From NCBI GenBank assembly GCA_036502225.1, contig DASXYY010000029.1, forward strand, positions 14,151 to 78,150: a stretch of DNA of 64,000 bases. Direction: 5' to 3'. Made by a program: the position numbers and the translations under genes. The notes beneath the pieces were generated by a model. It searched no databases. It saw only the letters and a list, made by a program, of their open reading frames with translations, and was not told the DNA's origin. The stretch is from Opitutaceae bacterium. GTDB taxonomy: Bacteria; Verrucomicrobiota; Verrucomicrobiia; Opitutales; Opitutaceae. Each line of letters begins with the position of its first letter. The stretch's first letter is position 1. This document shows positions 6,515-64,000 of this stretch, piece after piece.

Positions 6515-6556
6515 CCGCCTCGGCGCATGGCGTGCGGCGCAGGAGCGAAATTGGCG

Positions 6557-6634: not shown

Positions 6635-6641
6635 TTTGCTT

Positions 6642-6712: not shown

Positions 6713-6714
6713 TC

Positions 6715-25319: not shown

Positions 25320-26050
25320 CGGACGAACCCTACCGCTGGCTCGAGGCCATTGCGAACCGCCGCGAGTACATTCGCGACCAGCTCAAGGGGGCTTCGCCCG
25401 TGTTCGCCTTTTCCCGTCGCGAGGGCGTCGTGGTCGTGGGAGTGGGCACCGGCCAGTCCAAAGTCTTTGAAATCTACGACCGCCACGCCTTGGGGGCGCT
25501 GGGGCACCCGGTGGACATCGAAAAGATCCGGCAATCGCTGATCGAGGCGGCTCACCTGGAGGGATTCACTCGCGCGCCCGAGGATGTGACCGTGCGCCGG
25601 ATGCTGAATTTTGCGTTGGGGCCTGCGCTCAAGAACGCTTTCGAGCAGGTCCTCGCGGCCCCGCTGATTGTGGAAGGATTGTTGGTCGAAGCGGGGCCGG
25701 AACCATCCTCGGATGTGCTGGCCGCTTTTCGCCACGACGGCACCCACGCGTTTGCCACCGGCGTGGCGGTTTCCTTTCCGAACGCGGATCGGGCGGCGGC
25801 GGCGGCCGCCTGGCTCAAATCGCAGCTTTCGGAGACCACCGCGCTGCGCGAGGTGGTGCGGGCGGCGGTGACGGCGAGCCGGACCTTGGCCGCCGACGGA
25901 GCCGGCCGGGCCGACGCGCCCTTTCCGGAGCGCCCGGACGCCGCGATCGAGCGGCCCGACGGGCGCGTAGTGGAGGCCGCGGTGCTTGAACGCGCGGGCG
26001 TGGGACGGGCCCGCTATCGCGCGCTCGACGGCGGCGACTATGCGGGCTAA
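25316..26050 (+). CDS. prcA: 20S proteasome alpha subunit
   Basis: 244 aa directly after prcB with no catalytic N-terminal Thr. Core VFAFSRREGVVVVGV...IYDRHALGALGHPVDIEKIR resembles a proteasome alpha fold. Confidence 0.8.
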   Translation: MTDEPYRWLEAIANRREYIRDQLKGASPVFAFSRREGVVVVGVGTGQSKVFEIYDRHALGALGHPVDIEKIRQSLIEAAHLEGFTRAPEDVTVRRMLNFALGPALKNAFEQVLAAPLIVEGLLVEAGPEPSSDVLAAFRHDGTHAFATGVAVSFPNADRAAAAAAWLKSQLSETTALREVVRAAVTASRTLAADGAGRADAPFPERPDAAIERPDGRVVEAAVLERAGVGRARYRALDGGDYAG

Positions 26051-28798: not shown

Positions 28799-28877
28799 GG
28801 TGGAGCGCATGGTCCCCATGCGCTTTGACGTTCGCCCGCGTTTGACGCCGAAGCGCGTGGGGACCACGCGCTCCACC
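28799..28877. repeat. type A REP doublet (long-spacer form)
   Basis: GGTGGAGCGCATGGTCCCCATGCGC-TTTGACGTTCGCCCGCGTTTGACGCCGAA-GCGCGTGGGGACCACGCGCTCCACC. Lies between the convergent anti-sigma and ruvA genes. Confidence 0.9.
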
Positions 28878-36511: not shown

Positions 36512-37573
36512 ATGATCTGGCTCGATGTGACCAAGACGGCCGATGCTCGGCACAAGTCGGGACTCACGCGGGTGACGACGAAGGTGCGCGCGGCGCTGGG
36601 CGAGGCGGCAAACGAACATCGGTGGCTCCCGCGGCAGGGTTGGAATGTGCCGGCTTCGCCCGACGATTGGTATCTGACGGCCGAGGTGTTTGCGCCGCAC
36701 GAACGACCCGGCTTCGGGGAATTTGTGCGGCAGCGTCCCGTGAAGCTGGCCGCGATCTTTCACGATGCGATTCCGCTGGAGTTGCCGCACATCACCTGGC
36801 CGAAATCGGTCGGACGCCATCCGCTGTATCTGTCCATGCTGGCGGAGTTCGATCGGGTGTTGGCGGTGTCGAATTACAGCCGTGAACGGCTGCTCGGGTT
36901 CTGGAAGTGGCAAGGGAGGGCGGTCCGGGCGCAGGTGGACGTGATTCCGTCGGGGGCGGATTTTTTGGTTCCTGTAGCCGGGGGCCTATCCCGAGGTGGA
37001 GCGCGTGGTCCCCACGCGCTCCACCTCGGGATAGCCCCCGGCTACAGCAAACGGCCGCTGGTGCTCTGTGTAGGGATACTTGAGCCCCGGAAGAACCAGA
37101 CTTTTCTACTGAAGGTGGCAGAAACGCTCTGGGCGGAGGGTCTCGACTTCGACCTCACCTTCGTCGGCCGCATCAATCCGCACTTTGGCCGGCCGATCGC
37201 TCGCGCCCTGCGCCAATCGCGCGCTCGCTACCTCGGCGCGGTGAGTGACGAGAAGCTCGTCCAGCTCTACCGCGAAGCCACCGTCTGCGCGTTGCCGACT
37301 CTCGCCGAAGGCAATGGATTGCCTCTCCTGGAAGCTTTGTGGTGCGGGACGCCCTGCATCGCTTCCGAGCTTCCTCCGCTCCAGGAAAATGGCGGAGAAG
37401 GCTGTCTGCTGGCACCGACCGGCGGTGAAACGGCCTGGGCCATTGCTTTGCGGGGTGTGATCGCGCGTCCCGATTTCGCGGCGCAATTTCGATCTCAGGC
37501 CGCCACGCGCCGCGCCACGCTCCCTCGCTGGGCGGACACCGCCCGCGCGCTTCAAAGCTTCTTGAGCGCGTAG
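36512..37573 (+). CDS. GT4-family (GT-B) glycosyltransferase carrying a 24-codon palindromic insert
   Basis: ATG at 36512 (MIWLDVTKTADARHKSGLTRV, similar to the N-terminus of the 38781-39965 GT4). C-half LCVGILEPRKN...AEGNGLPLLEALWCGTPCI. Insert at 36974-37045. Confidence 0.7.
   Translation: MIWLDVTKTADARHKSGLTRVTTKVRAALGEAANEHRWLPRQGWNVPASPDDWYLTAEVFAPHERPGFGEFVRQRPVKLAAIFHDAIPLELPHITWPKSVGRHPLYLSMLAEFDRVLAVSNYSRERLLGFWKWQGRAVRAQVDVIPSGADFLVPVAGGLSRGGARGPHALHLGIAPGYSKRPLVLCVGILEPRKNQTFLLKVAETLWAEGLDFDLTFVGRINPHFGRPIARALRQSRARYLGAVSDEKLVQLYREATVCALPTLAEGNGLPLLEALWCGTPCIASELPPLQENGGEGCLLAPTGGETAWAIALRGVIARPDFAAQFRSQAATRRATLPRWADTARALQSFLSA
36974..37045. repeat. nested 72-bp palindrome (type A hairpin inside type B arms) within a CDS
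   Basis: GTAGCCGGGGGCCTATCCCGAG-GTGGAGCGCGTGG-TCC-CCACGCGCTCCAC-CTCGGGATAGCCCCCGGCTAC. Only one unpaired base. Confidence 0.95.
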
Positions 37574-44638: not shown

Positions 44639-44725
44639 GGGTGGAGCGCGTGGTCCCCACGCGCTTAAACCTCCGCCCGCGTTTTGTATCAATCGCCGAA
44701 GCGCGTTGGGACCACGCGCACCACC
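44639..44725. repeat. type A REP doublet (long-spacer form)
   Basis: GGTGGAGCGCGTGGTCCCCACGCGC-TTAAACCTCCGCCCGCGTTTTGTATCAATCGCCGAA-GCGCGTTGGGACCACGCGCACCACC. Lies between convergent stops at 44625 and 44727. Confidence 0.9.
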
Positions 44726-46376: not shown

Positions 46377-47362
46377 GGGGCGGATGCGGCAGCGTGTTCC
46401 AACGAGCGCCAGCGTGCAAATTCGATTGCGAGGGCCGCGCGCGCCCCCTCGGCGGCGCGGGCGGGCGGGCGGCGGCGCAGGCCGTAGCGACACAGGGCGG
46501 CCTGACCGGCCAGCCGGCGGTCGGGGTAGTCGCGGGGTTCAGGCAGGTAGCGCTCGAAGTAGGCTTGGGTCCAGGCCATTTCCGCCAATCGGGACAGCCG
46601 TTCGGCCCAGCTCCGGGCCAGGCGGTGCGCGTTGGCTTCATTCCGCGCGTTGCGATTGGGGCTGGCGCTGACGTGGTGATCGACGGCGCTGCGCAGGGCG
46701 ACGGCGTTGGTGCGGCCCAGTTCAGCGGCCCGGAAACAAAGGTCCACGTCTTCGCAGCCATTGAAATAACCTTCGTCGAACCCCCCGAGCGTGCGCCACA
46801 ATTCGGCCGAGATCAGCAGGCACGCGCCGGTGACCGCCGGAACCAAGGAGAAACCGCGCAGGCGTTCGGTGACGGGCGCCCGTTTCCGATGCTCCGGCTT
46901 GGCTTTGGCGTTGATTACGATGCCGGTGTGGTCGATCGCGCCGTCGCTGACGCGGTATTGCACGTTGCCGATGGCGCCGGCTTGGCCGCGCCGGGCGAGC
47001 CCGCCGTGCAGGGCAAGCATGGGTTCAAGCCAGCCGGGGCGAAGGACCAGGTCGTTGTTGAGGAGGACGAACAGATCGCCTTTGGCTGAAGCGGCGGCCC
47101 GGTTGTTGGATTTGGCGTAGCCCGAGTTTTGCGAGTTAAGCAGAACTTGCAGCCGGGAGCCTATCCCGAGGTGGAGCGCGTGGTCCCCACGCGCTCCACC
47201 CTTCAGCCATTCCCTGGTTCCGTCGGTGCTCCCATCGTCGACCAGGATGATCTCATGCGCCAAACCCGCGGGCATCGTCGCCTGCAGACTGGCCAGCATT
47301 GCCTGCGAGTACGGCAGGCAGTTGTAAAGCGGAACAATGAAACTGACCGCCGGGGCGCCCAA
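46367..47362 (-). CDS. GT2-family glycosyltransferase carrying an in-frame repeat insert
   Basis: VSFIVPLYNCLPY, ILVDDGSTDGT, VLLNNDLVL (DXD-type). TTG start directly after the rmlA stop. Insert at 47149-47210 is read as [19 protein letters not shown]. Confidence 0.75.
   Translation of the reverse strand: MGAPAVSFIVPLYNCLPYSQAMLASLQATMPAGLAHEIILVDDGSTDGTREWLKGGARGDHALHLGIGSRLQVLLNSQNSGYAKSNNRAAASAKGDLFVLLNNDLVLRPGWLEPMLALHGGLARRGQAGAIGNVQYRVSDGAIDHTGIVINAKAKPEHRKRAPVTERLRGFSLVPAVTGACLLISAELWRTLGGFDEGYFNGCEDVDLCFRAAELGRTNAVALRSAVDHHVSASPNRNARNEANAHRLARSWAERLSRLAEMAWTQAYFERYLPEPRDYPDRRLAGQAALCRYGLRRRPPARAAEGARAALAIEFARWRSLEHAAASAPCP
47149..47210. repeat. partial nested REP element (B-like arm + minimal type A hairpin) within a CDS
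   Basis: GCAGCCGGGAGCCTATCCCGAG-GTGGAGCGCGTGGTCCCCACGCGCTCCAC-CCTTCAGCC. The right outer arm is decayed. Confidence 0.8.
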
Positions 47363-50194: not shown

Positions 50195-50968
50195 TTAGAC
50201 GCGCCGATAATCACCGCGACTAAAATATTTCTCCAGCCATACGTACATGCAGATGAAGAAATAACGGCTGCCCATCTCCTTGATTTTCAGCTTGGCCACG
50301 CCGTGCTTGCGGTTGCGCCAGCTGATGGGGACGACGCTCCAACTGTAGCCGCGCACAATGGCCTTGAGCGGGATTTCGATGGTCAGGTTGAAATGCGGCG
50401 CGAGGAGCGGCCGGCATCCCTCGATCACCGTCCGCCGATACGCCTTGAAGGCATTCGTCGTGTCGTTCAGGGGGATCGCAAACAGCGCCTTGATGAACAG
50501 ATTCGCCAGCCGGTTCACCATCAACTTCACGCGAGGGTAGTCGAACACCTGGCCGCCGCGGATGAAGCGGCTGCCGAACACGCATTCGTATCCCGATTGC
50601 AGCAAGGCCCAGTAAGCCGCGGCATCGGCCGGCGAATCCGAGGCGTCCGCCATCATGACCACGATCGCGTCCCCTTGGCAGTGATCGAAGCCGCAGACGA
50701 CCGCGCGGCCAAAGCCGTGGTCGCCCTCGTTTCGGACCGGGCGCACCTCGGGAATATCCACGGCCAGCGCCGTGACCACGTCGAACGTGCCGTCGGAGCT
50801 GCCGTCGTCCACGATCACGATTTCGTGTGGGATTTTGCGCGCACGAAATTCCTGCGAAATCGCGCGCACCGTCGGCGGCAGCGACTCCCGCTCATCGCGC
50901 GCAGGGATGACGACTGAATATAGCCGCAACGGCGGCGCCTCTCTCAGCGGGGGAGGGGAACCAGCCAT
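50195..50968 (-). CDS. GT2-family polyprenol-phosphate glycosyltransferase-like enzyme (Dpm1/ArnC-like)
   Basis: YSVVIPARDERESL, IVIVDDGSSDGT, VVMMADASDSP. Confidence 0.7.
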   Translation of the reverse strand: MAGSPPPLREAPPLRLYSVVIPARDERESLPPTVRAISQEFRARKIPHEIVIVDDGSSDGTFDVVTALAVDIPEVRPVRNEGDHGFGRAVVCGFDHCQGDAIVVMMADASDSPADAAAYWALLQSGYECVFGSRFIRGGQVFDYPRVKLMVNRLANLFIKALFAIPLNDTTNAFKAYRRTVIEGCRPLLAPHFNLTIEIPLKAIVRGYSWSVVPISWRNRKHGVAKLKIKEMGSRYFFICMYVWLEKYFSRGDYRRV

Positions 50969-50971
50969 GCC

Positions 50972-51565
50972 TCAGGGTGCGGTGGGATTTCCGTTCGGCC
51001 GGGCGGAGTTCGCCCTCTTCTGCGCTTCCTCGTAAGCTTTGCGCTGGCGGATGGAAATTTCCAGCAGGTCGCTGACCAGCATGCGGGCGTCGCGCTCCTG
51101 CTTGATCTGCTCGGCCGTCTTGCCGGCGGTCGACGGATCGAACAGCGGCTGATTCGCCGCCAGGCTGGAACCGGCGGGGACTGCCGCCAGCGTGGACGGC
51201 GAGAAGGTCGGACCGGCCGACGCCGTCCGGGTCGCCCGGAGGCTCATTTGATGGATGCGCCCGTCGAAACGGACAACGGCCTGTTCCGAATTGGGGTCGT
51301 AGCTCAGCACTTGGAGATCGCCGTCCGTCTCCCCCACGCTCAACCAGCGGCTGTGCTTGGTGGTCGTGTTGTAGAGACAAATGGCCGAACCGCTGTCCGT
51401 GGCGCTGGCGCCGGCGAGTTCGTAGGTCTCGGCCGGCCCTCGGCTGCCGCGGCCCGCCGGTGTCCCGTTCGGCGGCAGAAACGGCGAACGATCGGCGTTC
51501 GACTGCGCGGCAGCGGAAGCGGACAGACCGGCCGAAATGAATACGATGATGAGAAGGCGATTCAC
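50972..51565 (-). CDS. secreted hypothetical protein
   Basis: Signal peptide MNRLLIIVFISAGLSASAAAQ. A beta-rich middle region and a charged C-terminal helix. Confidence 0.5.
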   Translation of the reverse strand: MNRLLIIVFISAGLSASAAAQSNADRSPFLPPNGTPAGRGSRGPAETYELAGASATDSGSAICLYNTTTKHSRWLSVGETDGDLQVLSYDPNSEQAVVRFDGRIHQMSLRATRTASAGPTFSPSTLAAVPAGSSLAANQPLFDPSTAGKTAEQIKQERDARMLVSDLLEISIRQRKAYEEAQKRANSARPNGNPTAP

Positions 51566-51579
51566 AGTCTCAACGAAGC

Positions 51580-52632
51580 CTAGACCCGCTTCTTCCAGGC
51601 TGCAACGATTTGAGCGATGGTGTCATCCAGGGTTTGGGTGATGTCCCAACCTGGGAAATGGGCCTTCATTTTCCGCAGGTCGGAATAGTAGCAGATATGA
51701 TCCCCGACGCGATTTTCTTCGAGATAGGTGTAGACCTGTTGGCGTCCCGAATAGCGCTCGGCGACGGCAAAAGCCTCGAGGATGGAGGCGCTGTTGGCCT
51801 TGCCTCCTCCCAGATTGTAGACCTCCCCGGGCCGCGGGGCCGCGACGAACGCCGCGATGAACCGGGCGACGTCCAAGGAATGGATGTTGTCCCGCACCTG
51901 CTTCCCCTTGTACCCGAAAATCTTGTACTCCCGGCCTTCCAGGTTGCATTTGACCAGATACGAGAGGAATCCGTGCAGCTCCACTCCCGTGTGGTTCGGT
52001 CCGGTCAGGCATCCACCCCGCAGGCAGCAGGTCGGCAGGCCGAAATACCGGCCATATTCCTGGACCATGACGTCCGCCGCCACCTTGGACGCGCCAAAGA
52101 GCGAGTGCTTGGACTGGTCGATCGTGAAGGTTTCGGCAATGCCTTCGGCGTACGCCGGATCCGAGTAGTCCCAGCGGGTGGCCTGTTCCACCAAGGCGAT
52201 GCGGTTGGGGGCGTCGCCGTAGACCTTGTTCGTGCTCATGTGAGCGAAAGGCGACTGCGGACAGGCTTGGCGGGCAGCTTCGAGCAAATTCAGCGTGCCG
52301 ACGGCGTTGGTGTCGAAATCGTCGAAGGGAATGGAGGCCGCCCGATCGTGGCTGGGTTGCGCCGCCGTGTGAACGATGGCGTCCGGCTTCACTGCGTTGA
52401 CCAGCGCCAGCACGCCGGCCCGGTCGCGAATATCCAGCTCGTGATGGCGAAATCCCGGCAGTTCGCGCGCCAGCCGAGCCTGGTTCCACCGTGTGTCTCC
52501 CGCCGGTCCGAAAAATACCGCGCGCTGGTTGTTGTCCACCCCGTGAATGGTCCAGCCTTCGCGGGCGAAATGGGCGCAGACTTCGGAACCGATCAGGCCG
52601 GAAGACCCGGTGACGAGCAGGTTTTTGGGCAT
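51580..52632 (-). CDS. NAD-dependent epimerase/dehydratase (extended SDR, CDP-paratose-2-epimerase-like)
   Basis: ATG at 52632 ([17 protein letters not shown]). [10 protein letters not shown]. The expected YxxxK position reads FGASK (codon TTT). Confidence 0.8.
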
Positions 52633-52649
52633 GGAAAGCGGACGTTGAA

Positions 52650-54785
52650 TCAAACCGCCGCTAAAGGCAGCGCGAAAAATGCCGCCGCGCCAAGAAGTAA
52701 TGCGAGGTCGATTTTGGACAGATGATCCCACGAAAAACCGGACGCACCGATCATGCCCGCCCAATGGGCCGCCAGGGTTTCGAGCAAGACAATTGCAAGC
52801 GCCAGGCGGGACGCCGGCCGGCTGAGAGGCCAGCGCGTCGCGGTCCACAGCACGATGCCGATCGTAATCGGTTCCAGACAGTTTCGGCCGAGGCCGTCGG
52901 TGCTGTAGCCCCAAAAAACCACGGCAAGCGCAAGCCCGGCGAGGATGAACCACCGGCCGAATTCCCGACCGTTTCGATCCGGGGAGTGGGAACGCTTGAA
53001 CGCAGCCAGGAGCGGGATCCACGCGCCGGCAAAGCCCAGCTGGGAGGGAAGCGTCTTCGAATATTGCATCGACCAGATGAGCCAATCGTTCAGTTGACGG
53101 GTGCGCCAGACATGGGCCGCCTTATCCGCCAGCCAGGCTCCCGGCACGACCGTGTCGAGCAGGCTTTTACCGCGGGAAAGCGCCCAGCTTCCCGCCGAAA
53201 CCGCCGGTAGCGCGCCGCGCCCATCGCCGATGAAGTAGGAGAGGAATGGGTCGGGTTCGTGCGCGTGGTGCTTTAACCACAGCCAAGGAAGGCAGGCCGC
53301 GGCTGCCGTTGCCGCGGAGCGCAGGGTCCATCCCAGACCATTGAGGCGCAGAAAAAAGACCAGCAGCGGCACCGCGAACAATGCGCCGAGCGGATGGGCG
53401 TAGTAGGCCGCGGCGAGCCACAGGCCCGTCCAAATAAAGTGGAAGCGGCGGCCCGACTCGGGAATCGCAGCGGCCGCTGCCAGCAACAGGAATGAGGTCG
53501 CCAGCAGCTTCGGCCATACGAACGTCGTATTGATCCACGTCACCGGCGCGAACGTCAGCCAGACCAGCGCCCATCGCGCTTTCTTCGGTTCCACGCCCAG
53601 ACTGAGGAGCAGCTCCGCGGCGGCCAAAATGAGGCCCGCATTGGTGAAGATGCCGATGAACCGGGCGATAAAGAAACTTTCTTCGGCCGCGGGCCAGGGA
53701 CCCAGGGAGGCATCGCCGCCCGATTGGACCTGAGGCGGGGCGAGACCGAATTCCCCCAGAATGGCCAGCGGAATCAAAGGTCCTCGCGAAGTGGCCGACC
53801 ACCCGTGCCAGAAGAAACGTTCCGAGACCGCGGGCGTCCGCACCGGCAGCGTCAAATACGCCGCCGTTTTGTAGGGAATGGCGCTGTCCGGCGGCGAAGC
53901 CGCGAGCCGGGCTTGGAGCGGCGACTGCCTCCAGAAATCCTCGCCCAAAGGCGTGCGCACGGCCGAATCGAGGATCGCGGCGCCCGCGAGCGCGATGAAG
54001 CACAACCAGGCCGTTCGCTCCACTTCACCATTGCAAGCAAGCGGCGAGACGCCGCTTCCACGGAACACCACCGATATCACCAATAGACTCTCGATCACGA
54101 CCAGCCCCTTCCCAGCCAGCGAACCGTGGGCGGGCCCCCATAGGCAAGCCACGACTCCCGCCGCCATCATCAGTCCAAGTCCCGGCAAGGGAACGTAGGC
54201 GGCTTTCCGAATCCCGAATGCCCAGCCGGGAACGAGCAACAGCGCGGCGACGGAAAAAGCGCAGGCGAAATAATAGACGTAATCGGTTTGCAGATACGCC
54301 GGAACCGGATGCGGCGGCAACGCATCCACCGATCTCGACGACCGGATGGGAGAACCGCACCACACCGAGCCCGGCGACGCCTGGATCTGCGCGCGGAGGC
54401 CCCGCCAGCCGCGGACGTCGATCTTCCAAAAGTTGAGCCCCGGGTAGGCGTCGGGGCGGCGGCGCAGGGTCGCGACCGGGAATCCGGAAGTGTCGATCAC
54501 GTCAAGTTTGAGTTCCGCGTCCTGGCCTTGGAAGGGGACGTAAAGAAACGAACCGGTCAGCGCGAACCGGCGGGACTCCCGCTGCGGCCGCTGAATGGCA
54601 TAGGTGACGTCCCCGAGCGGAACGCCGTCGAAATCCTTCCCGGAAAGCACGTCCGCCCGCCATTCCGAATCCGCTCCCGAATTCGGCCGAAACCACCAGG
54701 GCAGGTTCAGGATCAGCAGGACGACCATCGCCGCGATCCGCGAATTGGATTGAAAACCGGCGCCTCGACTCACTGTGATGCGCAA
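52650..54785 (-). CDS. large polytopic membrane protein (up to 711 aa) with N-terminal extracytoplasmic domain
   Basis: About 14 hydrophobic segments after a ~170-aa soluble region. Start uncertain: TTG 54785, GTG 54773 or ATG 54728. Confidence 0.55.
54039..54061. repeat. solo type C REP unit within a CDS
   Basis: Minus-strand GTGGAAGCGGCGTCTCGCCGCTT differs at one loop base from the arms at 43647-43706. Confidence 0.7.
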
Positions 54786-54788
54786 CTC

Positions 54789-55550
54789 TTGACCCGCCTT
54801 TCTCCACTTTCAAGGCCGACCCGGCTTTCCGTGATCGTGCCGGTCTACAACGAACGTCCCACCGTGACGGAGGCGTTGCAGGCGCTGCTGGCCAAGGAAA
54901 TCTCCGGCGTCGAAATCGAAATTGTCATCGTCGAGAGCAACTCCACCGACGGCACCCGCGAAATCGTCCAGGGTTTGGCCGCGCATCCCCGGGTGGTCCT
55001 GGTCCTCGAGGACCGGCCCCAGGGCAAAGGGCACGCGGTGCGCGAAGCCTTCAAGCACATCACTGGAAATGTCGTCCTGATTCAAGACGCCGACCTGGAA
55101 TACGATTTGGCCGACTATGAGCCGCTGCTGGCGCCGATTATCGCCGGCCGGCAGACCTTCGTGCTGGGATCTCGCCATGGCGAAGGCGGCTGGGTCATCC
55201 GCAAATTCGACGACCAGCCGTTCCGGGGCTTCATCCTCAATCTGGCCCATTGGACGTTCACCCTGATGCTCAATGTGGCGCTCGGCACCTGGCTGCGCGA
55301 CCCGTTCACGATGTACAAGGTCTTCCGCCGCGAATGCCTCGACGGACTGACCTTCGAGTGCAACCGCTTCGATTTCGACTGGGAGCTCCTGATCAAGCTG
55401 GTCCGCCGGGGCCATCGCCCGATCGAAATCCCAGTTGCCTACCGCTCGCGCTCCTTCAGCGAGGGAAAGAAGGTCCGCATGTTCGCGGACCCGATCACTT
55501 GGATCTGGGCGCTCGCGAAATACCGGTATTGCAATTTGCGACCGAAGTGA
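54789..55550 (+). CDS. GT2-family glycosyltransferase
   Basis: LSVIVPVYNERPTV, VIVESNSTDGT, LIQDADLEYD. There is no ATG, so TTG 54789 is proposed; the track ORF from 54288 is antisense to the neighbouring gene. Confidence 0.7.
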   Translation: MTRLSPLSRPTRLSVIVPVYNERPTVTEALQALLAKEISGVEIEIVIVESNSTDGTREIVQGLAAHPRVVLVLEDRPQGKGHAVREAFKHITGNVVLIQDADLEYDLADYEPLLAPIIAGRQTFVLGSRHGEGGWVIRKFDDQPFRGFILNLAHWTFTLMLNVALGTWLRDPFTMYKVFRRECLDGLTFECNRFDFDWELLIKLVRRGHRPIEIPVAYRSRSFSEGKKVRMFADPITWIWALAKYRYCNLRPK

Positions 55551-57522
55551 TTGTTCGGGGCAGGTCTTCGGAACTGCTCCAAGCTTCCGCCATCAGTGCG
55601 ACCAAGAAGATGAGTCCGGCGGCCAGCGTAATCGTGCCCGCCCAGCGCGTGGCCCTCCACGCGGCGTGGGACCACCGGCCCATTTCGACAGGGTCGGCGA
55701 ACGCGAACCACGCGTTGGGACGATCGACGCGGGCTTCGACGACAAAGGGCCCGGAGGGCGCGCGGACGAACGCGTTGTGCCAGCCCTCTCCCGGGACGTG
55801 ATCGGGTTTGACCGTGGCCAGGACCCGGCCGGTCGTCGGATCACTCAGTGTCAGGGAAAGTCCGGTGCGGCCCAGATCGCCGGCCACGAGAAATTGGAGC
55901 CAGCCGCGAACGGGGGACGATACGGGCTGACTGCGCCAGACCGCCGGTTCGGCGCCGTAGGAACCATGGAAGCGGGCTTCGTCCAAGGGCGCGGTGTTCG
56001 GAGAAAGTCCGTCATTCTCCTTGGGATACGGAGGCTGGTTCTGAGGACCGCGGGTATCGGCATCGGCGAAGCCGGTGGTCGCGGCGGTGGTCAGAGCAAG
56101 CGGCAGCCGCACCGAGGCCGGCAGCAGGCGGCGGATGGGCGGCATCCGCAGGACCTCGGCCAGCGAGGCCGCGTCCGGGTAGGGGATCTCGGGATGCCGC
56201 AAAAAGGCCTCATCGCCGGAGGCGAGAAAAAACCGGGTGTTGGATTCAGCGTAGCCGTAGAATCGCGGAAGATCCTTCAGTTGCCCGGGCACCACGTCAC
56301 GCAACTGGTAGCAGAGGCCGATCACGAGAAGCAACGTCCAGGCCCCGGCCAGAAGCAGCCACAGCCGTCGCTTTCCGACTGTGCCGTGGTCGCCGGCAGG
56401 ATCGCTGTAGCCGGGGGCGTTGACACCGGCACCTGCGGTGTCGAAAGCGGGACTGCCGGGGTCACCGCCCCCGGCTACAGAATGCAGCCCGCCGTCGACG
56501 AGGACCGCCAGGCAGAGCGCATTGGTGATGAGGCCCAGGAAGAAGGTGTCGATGTAGCGGGGCGCTGGCGGCGGCGCGCTCCCGCCTCGCGCATAAGCCA
56601 TCGCGGCAACCTGCATCAGAACCCACAAGCCAAGCACAAATAGCAGCAGGTTGAATTGCGTCGCGGGACGCCGGCGGAGAATCCGAACCGCAACCACGGC
56701 CCACGGGACCCAAAACAGCAGCGCGGTGTAACCCCATCCGGCTTCGAAAACGGGCCAGCCCAACCCCCGCATCGCCGCCCACCAGAAGGTGGCGAACGAA
56801 TGAGCCTGCAGGAAATAGTGTCCCGCGACGACGACCCGGATATGCACACCGAGGGCGAATAGGGCGGCGCACAACAGGACCGTCACTGCGGCGACCCACG
56901 AAATCGAGCGTTCGCGCCAGGCTTGAACGAGGACGACGGCGGCGCACGCGAACGCCGCCATGGGGCCGCTGCCCATCGCAACGAGCGACAGGGCCGCCGC
57001 CGCCAATCCCAGCCACCATGTTGCCTGTTTGGGCCGGCGGAAGGGAAGCCAGCACAGCGCCCCGAGCGCGAATAGGATCAGGTACCATTGCTGCGAATGA
57101 AACCCGTGGATGGCGTTTTCCCATGAGAATAATCCGGAGAATGCCATCGCTAGCAGGAGGCCGTTGACCGCAGTGCTTCGGCGCGAAAGATTCCGGCTGG
57201 CCAGGAGCAGAAAACAGACCGCGATCGCCGCGGGAATGCATGCGTTGACGACGGCCTCCAGCCGTTGATCCCACTGGCGATTCGCGATGGTCAGCCCGAG
57301 CGCGACCAATCGGGTCGGAACAATGCGGTGCTCGTTGTGCGCGTGAAAGAGATTGGAAAGGCTGTGATCGCCGGAGTACCACGGCTCCAGGATTTGCCGG
57401 GCTTCCGCATCCCATTGATCGAGCTCCGGGAGCGACCTGCCGAACCGATCGACAAGCGCCCAACGGAACCCCATGACGAAGAGAAACAAGGCCACGGCGG
57501 CCAACGTCAGAGAACGCCTCAT
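55495..57522 (-). CDS. polytopic membrane protein, candidate GT-C glycosyltransferase (paralogue of 57519-58913), with a 24-codon palindromic insert
   Basis: ATG at 57522. TM1 then the acidic loop PELDQWDAE. About 11 TM segments, then a ~200-aa C-terminal soluble domain. Insert at 56407-56478. Confidence 0.6.
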   Translation of the reverse strand: MRRSLTLAAVALFLFVMGFRWALVDRFGRSLPELDQWDAEARQILEPWYSGDHSLSNLFHAHNEHRIVPTRLVALGLTIANRQWDQRLEAVVNACIPAAIAVCFLLLASRNLSRRSTAVNGLLLAMAFSGLFSWENAIHGFHSQQWYLILFALGALCWLPFRRPKQATWWLGLAAAALSLVAMGSGPMAAFACAAVVLVQAWRERSISWVAAVTVLLCAALFALGVHIRVVVAGHYFLQAHSFATFWWAAMRGLGWPVFEAGWGYTALLFWVPWAVVAVRILRRRPATQFNLLLFVLGLWVLMQVAAMAYARGGSAPPPAPRYIDTFFLGLITNALCLAVLVDGGLHSVAGGGDPGSPAFDTAGAGVNAPGYSDPAGDHGTVGKRRLWLLLAGAWTLLLVIGLCYQLRDVVPGQLKDLPRFYGYAESNTRFFLASGDEAFLRHPEIPYPDAASLAEVLRMPPIRRLLPASVRLPLALTTAATTGFADADTRGPQNQPPYPKENDGLSPNTAPLDEARFHGSYGAEPAVWRSQPVSSPVRGWLQFLVAGDLGRTGLSLTLSDPTTGRVLATVKPDHVPGEGWHNAFVRAPSGPFVVEARVDRPNAWFAFADPVEMGRWSHAAWRATRWAGTITLAAGLIFLVALMAEAWSSSEDLPRTITSVANCNTGISRAPRSK
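56407..56478. repeat. type B REP doublet (72 bp) within a CDS
   Basis: GTAGCCGGGGGCGTTGACACCGGC-ACCTGCGGTGTCGAAAGCGGGACT-GCCGGGGTCACCGCCCCCGGCTAC. Confidence 0.9.
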
Positions 57523-58913
57523 AGGAGTAGGAGGACCACGAAGCTCACGCCTGCCAAGGTCGCCAAGACGAACCCCGCGGAGTCAAGAAACCTGGCCATT
57601 CGCGAACCGAAGGGCTCGCGAGCCGGCGGGGTGTGGATGCTCGGAGGATAGAGCGGCCGAAGTTCGGTCAGATTCAAGCGGAGCTGGGAACCATCGACAG
57701 TGGGATAGGGCAGAGCGTCCTCCTTCAACTGGCTCCGGTCGCCCGTGGCGAGGTAGGCGCGCACGTCCGTCCCCATTTCCGAATGGATTCGTCCGGTCTT
57801 TTCCATGGCCGCCCAGGTCCCAGGCCAAGTGGAAATCAGGCCCACTACGACAATCGTCGTCCATAGCCCCGCCGCGCCGCGTATCGTCGGCCGCTGTTCG
57901 GCCGATGTCCGATCGGCCTTCAGCAGCACCCGCAGGCTCAGCGCGTTCGCCAGCAATCCGACGAGGACATTGTCCAAATAGCGGGTCGGCGGGGGCAGCC
58001 CGCCCCAGCCGCGGGCGTAAGCCGCTGCCAGCGATTGCGCGAGCGACCACGCTCCGAGGAGCACAATGAATGTCACCTCGCGCGAGTTGATCTCGTCCCG
58101 ACGCCGAAGAGTGCGGAGTGTCAGCCAGATCCAAGGAAGATAGAGGAGCAGAGCTCCGTAACCGAACGGCGCGGAGAACGCGGGCCAGCCGACGGACTGG
58201 AGCAGCGTTTGGAAAAACTCCGCAACCGATCGGGCCTTGAGCGCCTGAGTGGCCGGCATGGACGTTTGAATCGCCAACGCCACACCGATGATGGCCAGAT
58301 AGATCAATAGGCTTGGCCAAAGGCGCCGCCGTCGCACGACCAGCCAGCCGGCGGCGAATACCGCCGCAAAGAATCCGCTCGCCATGGAACCCAGCGCCAG
58401 ACCCGCCGCCACCCATCCGGGCCAGGAATCCGGCCACGCGAACGTGACCAACGCCAAGCCGACCAGGAAAAGCTGCTGCGAATGGAATCCGCGCAGCACA
58501 TTGTCGGTCGCCCAGGGCACGGCGTAGGCGGCCGCAAGGGCGAGAAACCAGAGACATTGGCCGGTTCGGGACAATCCCGAGGCGAAGCCAAGGAAAAATC
58601 CCGCTGCCAGAACGGCGGCCAGGCCCGCATTGACGGCCGTTTCCAGCCGCTGGTCCCACCAGCCGTTGGCCGTCGTCTCCACGTAGGCCAGCACCCGGGT
58701 GAGCAGGACGTGATGGTCAACGTGCATTTCCAAAAAATTCGAGAGATGCAGGTTATGGTGGGCCCGCGCGACAAACAGATTGAACCCTTCGGCATCCCAC
58801 TCGTCCTCCTCGGGAATGTCGGTGCCGAACCGTCCCTCCACGCCCCACCGGCATCCAAGCACGAGCACCACCAAGCAGGCCGTCAGGGCGATGATGCGGG
58901 TACGCGAGGACAA
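57519..58913 (-). CDS. polytopic membrane protein, candidate GT-C glycosyltransferase (paralogue of 55495-57522)
   Basis: Acidic loop PEEDEWDAE after TM1. Aligns with its paralogue from (L)SSRTRIIALTACLVV. Start inferred as TTG 58913 (alternative TTG 58949). The track ORF to 59339 runs through a repeat. Confidence 0.55.
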   Translation of the reverse strand: MSSRTRIIALTACLVVLVLGCRWGVEGRFGTDIPEEDEWDAEGFNLFVARAHHNLHLSNFLEMHVDHHVLLTRVLAYVETTANGWWDQRLETAVNAGLAAVLAAGFFLGFASGLSRTGQCLWFLALAAAYAVPWATDNVLRGFHSQQLFLVGLALVTFAWPDSWPGWVAAGLALGSMASGFFAAVFAAGWLVVRRRRLWPSLLIYLAIIGVALAIQTSMPATQALKARSVAEFFQTLLQSVGWPAFSAPFGYGALLLYLPWIWLTLRTLRRRDEINSREVTFIVLLGAWSLAQSLAAAYARGWGGLPPPTRYLDNVLVGLLANALSLRVLLKADRTSAEQRPTIRGAAGLWTTIVVVGLISTWPGTWAAMEKTGRIHSEMGTDVRAYLATGDRSQLKEDALPYPTVDGSQLRLNLTELRPLYPPSIHTPPAREPFGSRMARFLDSAGFVLATLAGVSFVVLLLL

Positions 58914-58959
58914 GCGGATGAGCGTGTAAGACGCGTGGGCAATTTGCAACGGCGGGTGA

Positions 58960-59038
58960 GGTGGAGCGCATGGTCCCCATGCGCTTCGGCGCCAAACGCG
59001 GATGGACGTTAAAGCGCAGAGGGACCATGCGCTCCACC
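58960..59038. repeat. type A REP doublet (long-spacer form)
   Basis: GGTGGAGCGCATGGTCCCCATGCGC-TTCGGCGCCAAACGCGGATGGACGTTAAA-GCGCAGAGGGACCATGCGCTCCACC. Confidence 0.9.
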
Positions 59039-59040
59039 CG

Positions 59041-62000
59041 CTATAGCGGCGGCACTCGCGGGGGATAGGCCAGGGCGAAGTCTTCGGAGTCCAGCGAGAG
59101 ATTGGGATTGTAGGCGGGATCGTTGAGCAGCCGCGCGCCCCAGCGCGCCTGGATCGCCTCGATTTCGGATTGGAAGCGGGCGACCTTTTCGGGCGTATCC
59201 TCGGGACCGCGGCTGGCGGATTCGTGATGCACCAGTTCGGCCAGGGGGGTGTAGACGTTGCGCAGGCCGAGGCCCTCGACGCGCAGGCAGAAATCCACGT
59301 CGTTGAAGGCGACTGGCAGCCCCTTTTCTTCGAGGCCACCGACCGCCAGAAACGTGTCCTTGCGAATCACCAAGCAGGCGGCGGTGACCGCGGAAAGGTT
59401 TTGCGTCAGGTGGGGACGGAATTGGGGCGTTCCCGGATCGTTCTTCTCAAACAGCTTGAAGGGATGCCCCGCCACGCCGCCCAAACCGGTGATCACGCCG
59501 GCGTGCTGCACCCGCAAATCCGGATAGAGCAGGCGCGCCCCCACGGCGCCGATTCCCGGGCGCATGGCGTGCCCCACCATCTCGTCGAGCCACCGCGGGT
59601 CAAGCGCCTCGATGTCGTTGTTGAGCAGGCACAGCACTTCGCCGCGGGCTTCCTTGGCCGCGAAATTATTGATGGCGGAGTAATTGAACGGCGCGTCGTA
59701 GCGCACGAAACGCACATCGTCTTCCCGCTGCAGCGCCGCGAAGATCGCGAGGGACTCGGACTCGCCGGAACGGTTGTCCACCAGGATCACTTCGTACGGC
59801 GCGTACCGGGTCCGGGCGAAAATCGAGGCGATGCAAAGGCGGACCAGCTTGCCGGCATTGTGCGTCGGAATGATGATGGAGACCAAGGGATGGGGCCGGT
59901 CCTCCGCAAGACGGTAGGTCGCGTGCCAATGTCCGCCCACGGTCGGCGTCAATTCGACCTTTTGACCGGTCCGCTCAAAATGCTCGGCCAAGGCGCGGCG
60001 GGCCGACTCGGCGACGTAGCCCTTGGTCGAAAGCTGCAGGGCCGTCGATCCTTCGCCGGCGCGCCAATGGTAAAGGATCCGCGGCAAGTGCCGAATTTGA
60101 CTGGGCGCCAGCCGTTCGGTTGCCCGCAGCGCCAAATCCCAGTCCTGGCTGCCTTCGAATCCTTCGCGCATGCCGCCCAGCCCGCGGACGACGTCCGCCC
60201 GGTAGACCGTGAGATGGCAGAGATAGTTCTGGCTGCAAAGCAGGTCGGGATTCCAATCCGGTTTGAAGTGCGGATCGAACCGGGTCCCCTGTTCGTCGAT
60301 TTTGTCCTCGTCCGTGTAGATGAGCGCCGCGTCGGGATGGGCGACGACTTCCTGGGCGATGCAGTGCAGCGCGTGCGGCGCGAGCGTGTCGTCGTGATCG
60401 AAAAGAGCGACCCAGTCGCCGGTGGCGAGCGCCAGCGCGGTGTTGGTGGCGGCCGAGATGTGTCCGTTGCGGGGACGCCGGGTCACTTTGATCCGGCGGT
60501 CCAGGGCGGAATATTCATCGAGCACCTGGCCGACATGGGGCAGTGTCGACGCGTCGTCGGCGATGCAGATTTCCCAGTCGGAATAGGTTTGGGCGAGCAC
60601 CGAATCCAGGGCCGCCCGGAGCCAACGCTCATCAGGATTGAAGACCGGAATGAGGATGGAAAACCGCAAAGGAGGGAGCGCTGCTGCTTGCCGGCGAAGC
60701 CGGTCCAATACGGCCGGCGACGGTTCCGGGTGGGCCTTCAGCCAATGGGCGTACGTTCCGTGGGAATCGGGGTCCCCGGCGTGCAGGTCCCGGTGAAAGA
60801 AGGGATGCCAAACGCCGTCCGTGTCCTGGGCCTCGAGGTCGACCGCCGGGTCGCCCGATTCGAGCATCGCATCGATCTTGAAGCCCGCCGTGGCGCTGTA
60901 CGGCCAGGCCGGGAACACGAGCAGCAGATCCGGTCGCTCGCCGCCATAGGCGCCGCCATAGACGCGAGCGCCGATCCGCGCTCGGATCGCTCCAAATTGG
61001 GTGAGCGATTGCGAAAAACACCAGCCACGGATCGTGACGGGTCCGGAGAGTCCGTTCCAATATCGCGGCGCGTCCAGGTGGCTGGTGATCGGCAGTGTCG
61101 AGTTGGCGGCCGGACCCGGCGCCGCGGCTTCGGGTTTGGGTTTAAATCGGTCGATCAGCAGCCGCCGAAGGGCGCGCAGGGGCGCGGTGATCCGCCAGGA
61201 AAAACTTGCCGCCATTCGGCCCAGGCGTCCGCGCAGAGCGAAGATTTCCCCTTCGGCATCCGTGCGATACCGGCTGGCCGTTTCGGTCTGCGTTGCGATT
61301 TCCCTCCGCGCCTGGCGCAAGGCTTGATTCGCGTCGGCAGCTTGCTCGCGGGTCCGGGCCGAAACCTCCTCGAGCAAGACGACGTGGGCGCGGCGCATCC
61401 GATCGATTATGCGGAACCGATTGGCTTCAATTTTCGCTTCGGCGGCGCGCGCTTCGGCGGCGACGCGCGCGGAGTCGGCGGCGTGGCGTTCGTTTTCGAG
61501 GCGCTCGACGGCGGCCCGGGCCGGCACCAGTTCTGATTCCAACCGGGCGACCCGGTCGTCGCGCAGAGCGCCGGCGATATGCGGCCACAGGCGCCGCCAA
61601 CCCGGTTCCGAAGCCAGGAGTGGATCGATGACCGCCGTCGCGCTGGCGAATTCCGCTTCGTGGCCGGAGCGGCTGGTGGCGCCGACGCGGTAATCGAAGA
61701 GCACGGCCGGCACAGTCTCCATCGTGCGCCCGGCCCGCAGCCAATCGATCAGCAGTCGCCAATCCTCATTGACCAAGCCCGGCTTGAAGCCTCCCAGCTC
61801 AAGGAACGCATCCCGTCGGAAAAGGGTGTTGGTGTCGCCGAGGACATTTTCGACCAGCGCCAGTTCGTGGCAGGGGCCGAGCGGGGCAAAGATGTGGGAG
61901 GGGGCGTCGCGAAAGACCTCGAAAGCGCACGTGACGCAATCGGCGCCCGACGACGACATGGCGCGGGCGAGCGTCGCGATCATTTCCGGGCGGAAGCGAT

Positions 62001-63015
62001 TGTCGCCGTCGCAAAAGAGCACCGCGTCGCCGGTGGCTTCGCGCGCGGCGCGATTGCGCGCCGCCGACGGACCGGCGTTTTCCTGCCGGATGAATTTCCA
62101 ACCGAGGGGCCAATAGCGGTCGTTGGCCTTTTTCCACGCGAGCTCGGCGGTGGGACTCGTCGAGCCGTCGTCGATCACGATGACCTCGTGCGGGCGCAGG
62201 GTTTGGACAGAGAGAGTGTCGAGGGCTTCCTTGAGGTACTCGGCCTTCTCGTAGTAGGTGACGCAGACGCTGATTTTTATTGGTAGGTCGCGGCTGCCGC
62301 TGGACCTGTAGCCGGGGGCGTTGACCCCGGCCCCTTTGACATCAAAAGCGGGATTGCCGGGGTCAACGCCCCCGGCTACATCGACTGCCAACGGCGGGAC
62401 GCTTTTCCCGGGGCTTCCCTCCACTGCCAGCCACGGGCGAATGGGCGCTTTCGTCCAGGCTGATTCCTGGAGCCATTCGACCAGCTCGTTGCGAGCGGCG
62501 TAAATTTCATCCGCCGCTCCGATCGCCCGGCGCTCCAGAAATTCCGTCGCGATTCCGCTGCGGCCTTCGTCGGGAAACCGCCCCGCCCGCGTCCGCTCGA
62601 ACTCCGCCACGGTGGTCACGAAGAGGCGCAGGGCCGGGGGGGCCTTGAGCTTGCGGCCGGCCAGGGTCAGCCAGCCGCAGCGGCGGGCGCCTCCGATGGA
62701 TGCGGCGTGGGCCGGATGGCCGGCGAACCAAATCTCGTCGGCTTGGATGACGGCGCCGACATGCGCCAGGCGCAGGCCGACCGCATGGGCGTCGGCGGCG
62801 GGAAAGATCGGAACCGAAAAGGCCGGGGGCTCCTCGTCGAGATGCTGGTACTCGAGTCCGGCGGCCTCCGCCTTTTGCCGGAGCGAGCGGCTCAGCACCG
62901 CGCCAATGCGCTGGGAATGCAGCAGGATGACCCGGTCCGTCCGCCGTGCCACGGCAGCCAAATCCCAGGCGAACCCATCGCCGGGGTTAAGCTCGTGCGC
63001 GACAATGCAAATCAT
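59041..63015 (-). CDS. 1324-aa multidomain glycosyltransferase (N-terminal GT-B-like half, three GT2 domains, coiled coil)
   Basis: GT2 signatures ISVCVTYYEKAEY...VIVIDDGSTSP, FSILIPVFNPDERW...ICIADDASTLP and VSIIIPTHNAGKL...VILVDNRSGES. Coiled coil ARLESELVPARAAVERLENERHAADSARVAAEARAAEAKIE. Insert at 62308-62379. Confidence 0.8.
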   Translation of the reverse strand: MICIVAHELNPGDGFAWDLAAVARRTDRVILLHSQRIGAVLSRSLRQKAEAAGLEYQHLDEEPPAFSVPIFPAADAHAVGLRLAHVGAVIQADEIWFAGHPAHAASIGGARRCGWLTLAGRKLKAPPALRLFVTTVAEFERTRAGRFPDEGRSGIATEFLERRAIGAADEIYAARNELVEWLQESAWTKAPIRPWLAVEGSPGKSVPPLAVDVAGGVDPGNPAFDVKGAGVNAPGYRSSGSRDLPIKISVCVTYYEKAEYLKEALDTLSVQTLRPHEVIVIDDGSTSPTAELAWKKANDRYWPLGWKFIRQENAGPSAARNRAAREATGDAVLFCDGDNRFRPEMIATLARAMSSSGADCVTCAFEVFRDAPSHIFAPLGPCHELALVENVLGDTNTLFRRDAFLELGGFKPGLVNEDWRLLIDWLRAGRTMETVPAVLFDYRVGATSRSGHEAEFASATAVIDPLLASEPGWRRLWPHIAGALRDDRVARLESELVPARAAVERLENERHAADSARVAAEARAAEAKIEANRFRIIDRMRRAHVVLLEEVSARTREQAADANQALRQARREIATQTETASRYRTDAEGEIFALRGRLGRMAASFSWRITAPLRALRRLLIDRFKPKPEAAAPGPAANSTLPITSHLDAPRYWNGLSGPVTIRGWCFSQSLTQFGAIRARIGARVYGGAYGGERPDLLLVFPAWPYSATAGFKIDAMLESGDPAVDLEAQDTDGVWHPFFHRDLHAGDPDSHGTYAHWLKAHPEPSPAVLDRLRRQAAALPPLRFSILIPVFNPDERWLRAALDSVLAQTYSDWEICIADDASTLPHVGQVLDEYSALDRRIKVTRRPRNGHISAATNTALALATGDWVALFDHDDTLAPHALHCIAQEVVAHPDAALIYTDEDKIDEQGTRFDPHFKPDWNPDLLCSQNYLCHLTVYRADVVRGLGGMREGFEGSQDWDLALRATERLAPSQIRHLPRILYHWRAGEGSTALQLSTKGYVAESARRALAEHFERTGQKVELTPTVGGHWHATYRLAEDRPHPLVSIIIPTHNAGKLVRLCIASIFARTRYAPYEVILVDNRSGESESLAIFAALQREDDVRFVRYDAPFNYSAINNFAAKEARGEVLCLLNNDIEALDPRWLDEMVGHAMRPGIGAVGARLLYPDLRVQHAGVITGLGGVAGHPFKLFEKNDPGTPQFRPHLTQNLSAVTAACLVIRKDTFLAVGGLEEKGLPVAFNDVDFCLRVEGLGLRNVYTPLAELVHHESASRGPEDTPEKVARFQSEIEAIQARWGARLLNDPAYNPNLSLDSEDFALAYPPRVPPL
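62308..62379. repeat. type B REP doublet (72 bp) within a CDS
   Basis: GTAGCCGGGGGCGTTGACCCCGGC-CCCTTTGACATCAAAAGCGGGATT-GCCGGGGTCAACGCCCCCGGCTAC. Confidence 0.9.
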
Positions 63016-63031
63016 GCCAGCGGTTATCTTG

Positions 63032-64000
63032 CTATCTTCGGACGCCCGATTTCAAGAGTTCGAGCAGGCGGTGGCTGTCGCTCTGCGCGGCCATCGTCTT
63101 GCGCCAAAGCGCGTGGGGCGGGGGCATCTCTCCGAGGGCGCGTTCGCGCAGCCGCTCCATTTCGGGGATTCCATTCCGCTCGAGCTGCGCCTGGCTCTTT
63201 TGGGCCAGATGCAGGCGGAATAATCCGAGATACCAGGGCAGCCGGGCGAACCGGGCTCCCGCGGCCTTGAAGCGGAGCAAAAGGTCCCAATCGAGGGCGA
63301 ACTTGAAGTTGGCGTCGATGCCGCCGACCCGATCCCAGATTCGGCGCCGCCAAAACAGGGTTTCCTGAGGTATGAGGTCGTACCAATCCAGGTCGGCAAC
63401 CGCCCGCCGCGGCGTCGCCCAGCGGCCGATCTCGCAGCCCACATCGTCAATCAGGACTCGATGGCCGAAAACGACGTCGACCTCCGGGTGGTCGCGAAAA
63501 TAGCCGGCGACGAACGCGAGGGCGCCGGGCATGAGGGCGTCGTCAGAATTCAGATACGCCATGATGTCCTGGGGGCCCCGCGGCAGGGCGAGGAATCCCC
63601 GGCGGACGGCATCGGCCTGTCCGTCATCAGGTGCGCTGCGCCAGTAGGTGAGTCGGGGCGCCCACTCCGAGAGCACGCCCCGGGTCCCGTCCGTGGAACC
63701 GCCGTCCACGACCGCATAGTTTATCGCGACGTCCGGCTGATCGAGTACGCTGACCATCGCCGCCTCGAGAAACGCCGCCTGTTGAAAGGACGGTGTGACG
63801 ATCGCGAACGCTGGACGAGGGCCGCCCCGGACGGCGGGGAAGGTTTCCTGCCTCAGAGGACGGGGGGGGTATTGCGGAGCCAGGCGCAGCGGCATTTTCC
63901 CCGCCTGTTGCCGTTCGATGGTGATGAACTCGCGATCGGGCCGCCAGGAAAGCGCGTAGCCCGGCCAGCCGACCCGGCAGGTCCCTTCCGCGAATGGCAG
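63032..64000 (-). CDS. GT2-family glycosyltransferase (possibly 5'-partial; first in-window ATG at 63895)
   Basis: FAIVTPSFQQAAFLEAAMVSVLDQ, VVDGGSTDGT, LNSDDAL. The frame stays open from 63895 to the window edge (LPFAEGTCRVGWPGYALSWRPDREFITIE... then a Pro-rich linker), so an upstream domain is possible. Confidence 0.65.
   Translation of the reverse strand: MPFAEGTCRVGWPGYALSWRPDREFITIERQQAGKMPLRLAPQYPPRPLRQETFPAVRGGPRPAFAIVTPSFQQAAFLEAAMVSVLDQPDVAINYAVVDGGSTDGTRGVLSEWAPRLTYWRSAPDDGQADAVRRGFLALPRGPQDIMAYLNSDDALMPGALAFVAGYFRDHPEVDVVFGHRVLIDDVGCEIGRWATPRRAVADLDWYDLIPQETLFWRRRIWDRVGGIDANFKFALDWDLLLRFKAAGARFARLPWYLGLFRLHLAQKSQAQLERNGIPEMERLRERALGEMPPPHALWRKTMAAQSDSHRLLELLKSGVRR

Follow-up and report, generated by a model that had tools for sequence, protein, structure and literature searches.

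Prokaryotic repetitive extragenic palindromic (REP) elements have been sorted into two superfamilies, tagged GTAG and CGTC (Di Nocera, De Gregorio, Rocco 2013, BMC Genomics 14:522; PMC3733652), and about 70 intragenic GTAG REPs are listed for Opitutus terrae PB90-1 in Additional file 3 of the same study (PMC3733652). Here, we describe an element of this kind in a 64,000-nucleotide stretch of an Opitutaceae genome (contig DASXYY010000029.1, positions 14,151 to 78,150; the whole stretch is called the window below). It is a palindrome of 72 nt at 56407-56478, inside a gene for a GT-C-like membrane protein, and the original prediction, made from the sequence alone, had named it a "type B insert" present in one of two tandem paralogues and absent from the other. 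This insert is a GTAG-tagged REP doublet, which is a known element class, and is GTAG-17-like by its encoded peptides.

The published O. terrae GTAG-17 elements are the closest described system. Their translations include VAGGGDP, VAGVADPGPGSASPA, VAGLGEPGAGVRDPGY, and RGQRPRL (PMC3733652). Like the window element, they belong to the Opitutaceae lineage of the Verrucomicrobiota, pair a GTAG tag with a short GC-rich hairpin, occur as dimers, and lie in frame in many unrelated genes, to which they add 20-30 residues. The peptides match in three frames (VAGGGDP, VAG.xDPG..., and ...DPGY/EAGY for the first, PGSxSPA for the second, and RGQRPRL for the third), the match being one of encoded peptides and not of the published nucleotide consensus. 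The two differ in the spacer, which is mostly 1-2 nt in the O. terrae dimers, giving inserts of 15-16 amino acids, whereas the window element has a 24-nt spacer and a length of 72 nt, or 24 amino acids. The host genes differ too, as the GT-C-like gene and a triple-GT2 gene that carry the element in the window are not in the published list, and the source is an uncultured soil organism.

Two further systems bear comparison. In REP doublets forming hairpins (REPINs), mobilized by REP-associated tyrosine transposases (RAYTs) (Bertels & Rainey 2011, PMC3116915; Nunvar et al.; Ton-Hoang et al. 2012), an inverted REP pair and its spacer likewise form a long hairpin present in high copy number, and, as in those systems, related genomes here contain a gene for a Y1 (HUH) transposase with the same REPs on either side of it. 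However, the classical REPINs of Pseudomonas and Enterobacteria are almost entirely extragenic, whereas the type found in the window is often in genes, and the action of a RAYT on its module would be by analogy with those systems. The Rickettsia palindromic elements (RPE; Ogata et al. 2000, as cited in PMC3733652) are, as far as that citation describes them, also mobile palindromes lying in frame in genes, to which they add a tolerated peptide. RPE-4 and RPE-6 are the counterparts of the intragenic CGTC-group repeats of R. conorii, and RPE-1 is a palindromic insertion of greater length (PMC3733652). The RPE are another repeat class from another phylum, set apart by description rather than by sequence comparison from the 72-nt, GTAG-tagged element of the Verrucomicrobiota. 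The window element is an analogue of the RPE and not a member, and the RPE are its closest functional analogue.

The palindrome and its host gene

The element, its parts, and the two paralogous genes are as follows.

56407-56478, no strand: REP doublet of type B-B, REPIN-like, 72 nt or 24 codons, in frame in the GT-C-like open reading frame (ORF)
56407-56430, plus strand: left REP module, GTAG and the imperfect hairpin GCCGGGG/gcgttga/CACCGGC
56431-56454, no strand: spacer of 24 nt, ACCTGCGGTGTCGAAAGCGGGACT, akin to the spacers of the other REP dimers of the window (..GTCGAAAGCGG..)
56455-56478, minus strand: right REP module, inverted, reading GTAGCCGGGGGCGGTGACCCCGGC on the minus strand
55495-57522, minus strand: host gene, encoding a polytopic GT-C-like membrane protein of 675 amino acids with a C-terminal beta-sandwich domain resembling a carbohydrate-binding module (CBM); the insert is residues 349-372
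57519-58913, minus strand: tandem paralogue of 464 amino acids (476 in the JGI calls), which lacks the insert; its stop and the host gene's start overlap

The palindrome is imperfect and reads GTAGCCGGGGGCGTTGACACCGGC, 24 nt, and GCCGGGGTCACCGCCCCCGGCTAC; it extends to 56405-56480, where the outer ends are CTGTAGCC and GGCTACAG. Each arm is 24 nt long and consists of the GTAG tag and GCCGGGG-gcgktga-CCCCGGC, a hairpin with a 7-nt loop. The left module has one mismatch in its stem, which suggests decay. As single-stranded DNA, the 72 nt fold at -36.4 kcal/mol (z = -8.5, with none of 200 shuffles as good), and the RNA of the coding strand folds at -55.6 kcal/mol (z = -7.4). An Rfam scan of the whole window at gathering thresholds returned one tRNA only, and the palindrome matches no described RNA family. 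As in GTAG-tagged REPs, a short imperfect palindrome with a GTAG end occurs in dispersed copies and as an inverted doublet whose spacer and arms fold as one hairpin. The extragenic location of typical REPs was not found, since this doublet and three other B-containing elements of the window lie inside ORFs; this does not exclude REP membership, because the published O. terrae exceptions are of just this kind (PMC3733652).

In the host ORF (55495-57522, minus strand) the palindrome is codon-aligned and encodes residues 349-372, VAGGGDPGSPAFDTAGAGVNAPGY. The AlphaFold2 model of the protein (83 sequences; mean predicted local distance difference test score (pLDDT) 91.1, predicted TM-score 0.91) shows about 12 transmembrane (TM) helices, a beta-sandwich, and a final TM helix. 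Its best Foldseek match is the GT-C arabinosyltransferase EmbB (7bvf_B) with an E-value of 2.5e-6 but TM-scores of only 0.31/0.22, followed by Pmt1-Pmt2 with an E-value of 0.04. The residues D35, W37, and D38 in the first loop are invariant in the orthologue alignment of the host family. Neither the host nor the paralogue matched a Pfam or NCBIfam model, the family profile had no PDB sequence match, and the host fell outside the curated GT-C family models (PMT_2, ArnT/PMT, ALG10, RgtA-D etc.); PF04922 (ALG10/DIE2) or the UniRef name "RgtA/B/C/D-like" was reached only through distant homologues. That the host is a GT-C glycosyltransferase, as originally proposed, is plausible but not proven.

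The sole internal stretch of the model with a pLDDT below 50 is 351-375, between the helices at 321-343 and 379-415, and the insert is thus modeled as a disordered loop joining two TM helices. The original prediction had placed the insertion in a loop following the last conserved TM block. The loop is there, but a conserved TM helix, 379-415, still follows it, with W395 and G402 invariant among close orthologues. Regarding the topology, hydropathy and the positive-inside rule place RRRPATQFN (283-291) inside, and KRR (383-385) stands directly before the next TM helix. The 220-residue domain after that helix is a beta-sandwich resembling CBM6/35/61 modules in Foldseek, and the insert loop would probably be cytoplasmic if this CBM-like domain is periplasmic, as in EmbB. 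The side of the membrane, at which the topology check proposed earlier was aimed, we infer from the positive-inside rule and the place of the CBM-like domain.

Host and paralogue are 32% identical over 468 columns in BLASTP (E = 3e-59), and the pairwise alignment that had been proposed as a check shows a single 33-residue gap, host residues 343-375, that wholly encloses the palindrome-encoded residues 349-372. The peptides quoted for the two proteins are present, and the palindrome-linked extra segment of the first protein is indeed absent from the second. Its coincidence with the palindrome is partial: the palindrome lies inside the gap, but only 24 of the 33 extra residues are encoded by it, and the other nine are in a loop whose length varies in the family. 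As a control, the paralogue is weak at 32% identity, and the argument rests with the orthologues, which serve this purpose better. The insert is missing from all 13 aligned orthologues (34-60% identical, Opitutaceae-type), and none of the 82 homologues in the 83-sequence alignment contains the VAGG.DPG or AGV.APGY motifs. The loop from L341 to W395 has 53 residues in the host; in the alignment, its median length is 20 residues and the longest is 40.

A segment ancestral to the gene pair, later deleted from the paralogue and the other lineages, could also account for such a distribution. Loop length does vary among the homologues, from about 10 to 40 residues, and one of them (P0043) has a longer loop that by chance contains GSPAF. 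However, this history would need a loss in all 82 homologues, the palindrome is nearly identical at the DNA level to dispersed copies, including intergenic ones and copies in other frames, and the same element is found in an unrelated GT2 gene whose orthologues are without it. We consider an ancestral origin exceedingly improbable and effectively already refuted.

The order of events can be read from two syntenic loci, L104 and L105, whose host orthologues (50% and 56% identical) are free of the insert. In L105, a 163-residue, internally deleted remnant of the paralogue lies directly upstream and overlaps the start of the orthologue as in the window. This remnant is 68% identical to the window paralogue and 40% identical to the insert-bearing protein. 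As L105 keeps a paralogue remnant beside an insert-free orthologue, the duplication predates the split of those lineages and the insertion postdates it. On these sequence comparisons, the earlier claim that the insertion came after the tandem duplication holds, with the 13 orthologues, the 82 homologues, and the L105 remnant behind it. In L104, the paralogue is absent altogether.

The second full doublet of the window agrees with this.

62308-62379, no strand: the other complete B-B REP doublet (72 nt), which shares frame and orientation with 56407-56478 and encodes VAGGVDPGNPAFDVKGAGVNAPGY, residues 213-236 of a 1324-amino-acid protein
59041-63015, minus strand: host gene of the second doublet, encoding the 1324-amino-acid protein with three GT2 domains; its orthologues in L104 and L105 have 1296 amino acids

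This copy, too, is exactly 24 codons long, and it is situated in the linker that precedes the first GT2 domain. At this site, 29 residues are missing from the syntenic orthologues in L104 and L105 (71% identical), and P0085, the only other homologue that covers the region, has a 20-residue gap there.

A chimeric join at a repeat during assembly was considered as well. Logan contigs break inside the element and none of them spans it together with both flanks, which would fit an artefact. On the other hand, the identical 675-residue protein is found in two independent JGI metagenome assemblies, and Logan contigs of three runs cover the left flank up to 56469 and, beginning at 56451, the right flank, so that together they rebuild the whole element; the ORF also goes on in frame into sequence homologous to the C-terminal half of the orthologues. 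An artefact is accordingly a most improbable explanation. The window itself matches a 98-kb JGI soil-metagenome contig (Ga0376652_0000361).

The insertion might instead have inactivated the gene, leaving a young pseudogene whose role was taken over by the paralogue or another enzyme. The adjoining paralogue and the lack of direct expression evidence would fit this. Against it, the frame is open for 303 codons past the insert, family-invariant residues are kept on both sides (D35, W37, D38, R312, R322, W395, and P447-Y448-P449), the G+C content at third codon positions is 0.77, like that of neighboring genes, and the AlphaFold2 model is confident on either side of the loop. A pseudogene therefore seems improbable, if a little less so than an artefact.

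The closest non-self homologue of the host is 58% identical, and the loop is not alignable at the DNA level. Two apparent joints (56403>56567 and 56480>56562) were tried as evidence of a presence/absence polymorphism and rejected, as neither fits the ends of the element; they are most likely cross-matches from other repeat copies.

The genes around the insert (50195-63895) form a conserved cluster of polysaccharide type, shared with L001, L104, and L105. Besides several GT2 genes, it has genes for epimerases/dehydratases, for a nucleotidyltransferase, and for a transaldolase-family protein, as well as for three large polytopic membrane proteins that are unannotated. Elsewhere in the window, at 24567-27371, a proteasome-subunit gene lies close to a Pup-ligase gene, indicating a Pup-proteasome system on this contig.

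The repeat family and its candidate transposase

The 24-nt arm has seven copies in the window at three or fewer mismatches, compared with 0.00 expected. These B modules pair with each other or with "type A" modules, GGTGGAGCGCGTGGTCCCCACGCGCT, which are far more abundant, and the central spacer motif ..GTCGAAAGCGG.. is common to the B-B doublets and the A/B heterodimers. Type A carries the tag GTGG, as GTGG followed by AGCGCGTGG..CCACGCGCT. The O. terrae GTAG-20 elements mostly have GTGG instead of GTAG (PMC3733652), and type A possibly belongs to that family, a lead that comes from the tag and not from a comparison of nucleotide consensus sequences. Besides the two B-B doublets, the window contains the following REP elements.

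5870-5942, plus strand: B-A heterodimer in frame in the gene of an 871-amino-acid M16 peptidase, residues 658-682 (25 residues)
23359-23429, plus strand: A-B heterodimer in the gene of a 653-amino-acid PMT_2 and TPR protein, residues 366-389, ..IAGVSAPGY
6641-6712, plus strand: B-A heterodimer in an intergenic REP cluster, the sole B-containing element of the window outside a gene
6557-6712, 7396-7468, 15786-15858, 20643-20721, 24237-24315, 28799-28877, 44640-44725, and 58960-59038: type A-A dimers of 73-86 nt in short intergenic gaps
36995-37025 and 47170-47200: single A hairpins with GGTGG..CCACC ends

The heterodimer in the peptidase gene falls between the two matched M16 halves, with PDB matches on either side. 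The one at 23359-23429 separates the PMT_2 membrane domain from the TPR region, so that a second membrane protein of the glycosyltransferase type in the window carries a REP insert. The A-A dimers are mostly found directly after gene ends, as expected of classical REPs. A half-element (spacer and A module, 36444-36488) forms the last 16 codons of the GT1 glycosyltransferase ORF at 35235-36497 and ends 9 nt before the last base of the stop codon.

The copy number of the family was read from metagenomes. In the four soil-metagenome runs that hold the locus, the summed contig depth was higher over the palindrome than over its flanks by a factor of 40-180. In every run but the shallowest, which had 44, well over a hundred contigs fell on the stretch, nearly all of them on the repeat in other contexts, and many join the right half of the palindrome to a type A module. 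As the source genome is incomplete and the count is read from contig depth, the number of copies per genome is approximate.

The exact B module was also found in more than 100 DNA stretches of species-representative genomes, a lower bound. Among the matches listed, nearly all of these stretches come from metagenome-assembled genomes (MAGs) of Verrucomicrobiota (Chthoniobacterales, Opitutaceae, Udaeobacter, "Spartobacteria"), and they include 31 B+/B- doublets of 63-87 nt (33 with the two of the window) but no type A module at these other loci. The B module is conserved almost base for base across orders of the phylum. Five B-B doublets in other MAGs have Pfam-domain matches on both sides (L027, L082, L095, L036, and L098); one is 78 nt long, two are 69 nt, and two are 72 nt. 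All five lengths are multiples of three, and all five doublets are in the VAGG..APGY frame. Four of them lie between domains, namely in a protein with an FAD-oxidase/Fer4 part and a CCG part, in two ABC-F proteins, both times in the linker just ahead of ABC_tran_CTD, and in a family B DNA polymerase (PolB). The fifth is inside the UvrD_C match of a UvrD helicase.

In L041, at 6156-6726, a REP heterodimer unit of 84 nt is repeated in 6.8 tandem copies that are 98% identical and in frame in a 726-amino-acid ORF, with a 28-residue repeat unit VAGGADPGNSDREAGPASTRPATIDLSP. A similar array, with a period of 99 nt, was observed in L056.

A candidate transposase for the family was found in two of the related genomes. 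The RAYT-like gene at 2146-2622 of L080 matches Pfam Y1_Tnp with 30.2 bits (cut-off 23), and its product is 31% identical to the O. terrae RAYT Oter_2468 (E = 1e-11). A second RAYT-like gene, at 4435-4917 of L030, scores 26.6 bits with Y1_Tnp, above the cut-off, and is apparently truncated at its C-terminus. Both genes have REP dimers containing the B module on both sides. In L080, a Verrucomicrobia MAG, the flanks at 1968-2701 hold three REP heterodimers, each made of a variant module GTAGCCGGCCGCG.CGAGGCCGGC and a B module. Judged by gene order and sequence, this arrangement has the look of a textbook "REPtron" and would link the REP family to its transposase.

One open frame and the survival of the insert

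When either doublet copy is translated in six frames, each orientation has a single open frame. Translation in the remaining two is stopped by TAG, which is the GTAG tag itself, or by TGA in the module loop (GTTGAC or GGTGAC). Since the forward module leads on whichever strand is read, a surviving intragenic copy must read VAGG.DPG... and have a length that is a multiple of three. The two B-B copies of the window share a frame because only one frame of the element is free of stops. This common frame is explained by survivorship, and selection on the peptide is not needed.

We therefore propose, with a probability of about 0.85, that the 72-nt palindrome is a REPIN-like REP doublet of a high-copy family that was inserted after the gene duplication and has been tolerated as a near-neutral passenger. 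The palindrome would be a non-autonomous, GTAG-tagged doublet from a high-copy family of an Opitutaceae-like Verrucomicrobiota genome. By analogy with characterized REP/RAYT systems, a RAYT (an IS200/IS605-like Y1 HUH transposase) would mobilize such doublets as single-stranded hairpins, and one copy would have entered the GT-C-like coding sequence after the tandem duplication of the gene. It would have survived there for three reasons. The copy is read in the one frame of the element that has no stops, and its length is a multiple of three. It also falls in a loop between TM helices that is short, poorly conserved, and probably cytoplasmic, and there its 24 Gly/Pro/Ala-rich residues are predicted by the model to be disordered. 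A tolerated, near-neutral passenger is the most likely status of the insert; any effect of the stable RNA hairpin inside the mRNA on translation or decay is speculation.

Several observations weigh against this proposal. Nine of the 33 extra residues are not explained by the palindrome. With no host orthologue closer than 58% and no empty-site allele, the exact insertion boundaries and the target site are undefined; the four metagenome runs yielded no such allele, but contigs drop rare variants and its absence is not proven. No RAYT was found in the window by tblastn with two RAYTs (best E-value 0.057 over 24 residues) or by Pfam on about 25 of its ORFs. The translation of the segment is a prediction from the DNA. 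Finally, four of the five B-containing elements of the window are intragenic, compared with about one of the roughly 13 A-only elements, the half-element in the GT1 ORF (Fisher p about 0.008, by hand, from crude gene calls and a small sample), a pattern that is not obviously predicted by simple neutral survivorship.

This bias toward genes could point to co-option, in which the REP-encoded segment or its RNA/DNA hairpin became a selected flexible linker or a regulatory structure (e.g., for translational pausing during membrane insertion or as an mRNA processing site), with B doublets retained in genes or targeted to them. The recurrence of in-frame B-B doublets at domain boundaries of unrelated genes (ABC-F twice at one linker, UvrD, PolB), the 6.8-fold in-frame tandem amplification in one MAG, and the strength of the RNA hairpin agree with such a role. 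However, every orthologue and the paralogue are without the insert, and the protein family thus works without it. The left arm already has a stem-breaking mismatch, the model predicts disorder, and insertion into many unrelated proteins speaks against a functional constraint, as Di Nocera et al. argue (PMC3733652). We regard it as unlikely, though less far-fetched than a pseudogene. For GTAG-17-type doublets in general, preferential insertion or retention in the linkers and loops of coding regions, as opposed to a random filtering of passengers, is doubtful, at odds slightly better than for co-option here.

Significance for the Verrucomicrobiota

The in-frame insert at 56407-56478 is a clean but ordinary example of a published phenomenon. 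Intragenic GTAG REPs of Opitutus were cataloged in 2013 (PMC3733652), and the locus opens no new question. What it adds is modest, namely that the same module and a RAYT are spread over Verrucomicrobiota MAGs and that the B-containing elements of the window are mostly intragenic. If doublets of this type did turn out to be preferentially intragenic, they would be a phylum-wide source of ready-made disordered linkers or of regulatory intragenic RNA/DNA hairpins, sometimes amplifying in frame as in the L041 array.

For annotation, the element accounts for unusual insertions rich in Gly/Pro and for broken contigs in MAGs of the Verrucomicrobiota. With its paralogue, syntenic orthologues, second copy, and structure model, the locus is a naturally well-controlled case of a protein that has absorbed a selfish palindromic repeat, and it shows how the stop codons of the element itself limit the survivors to one frame.

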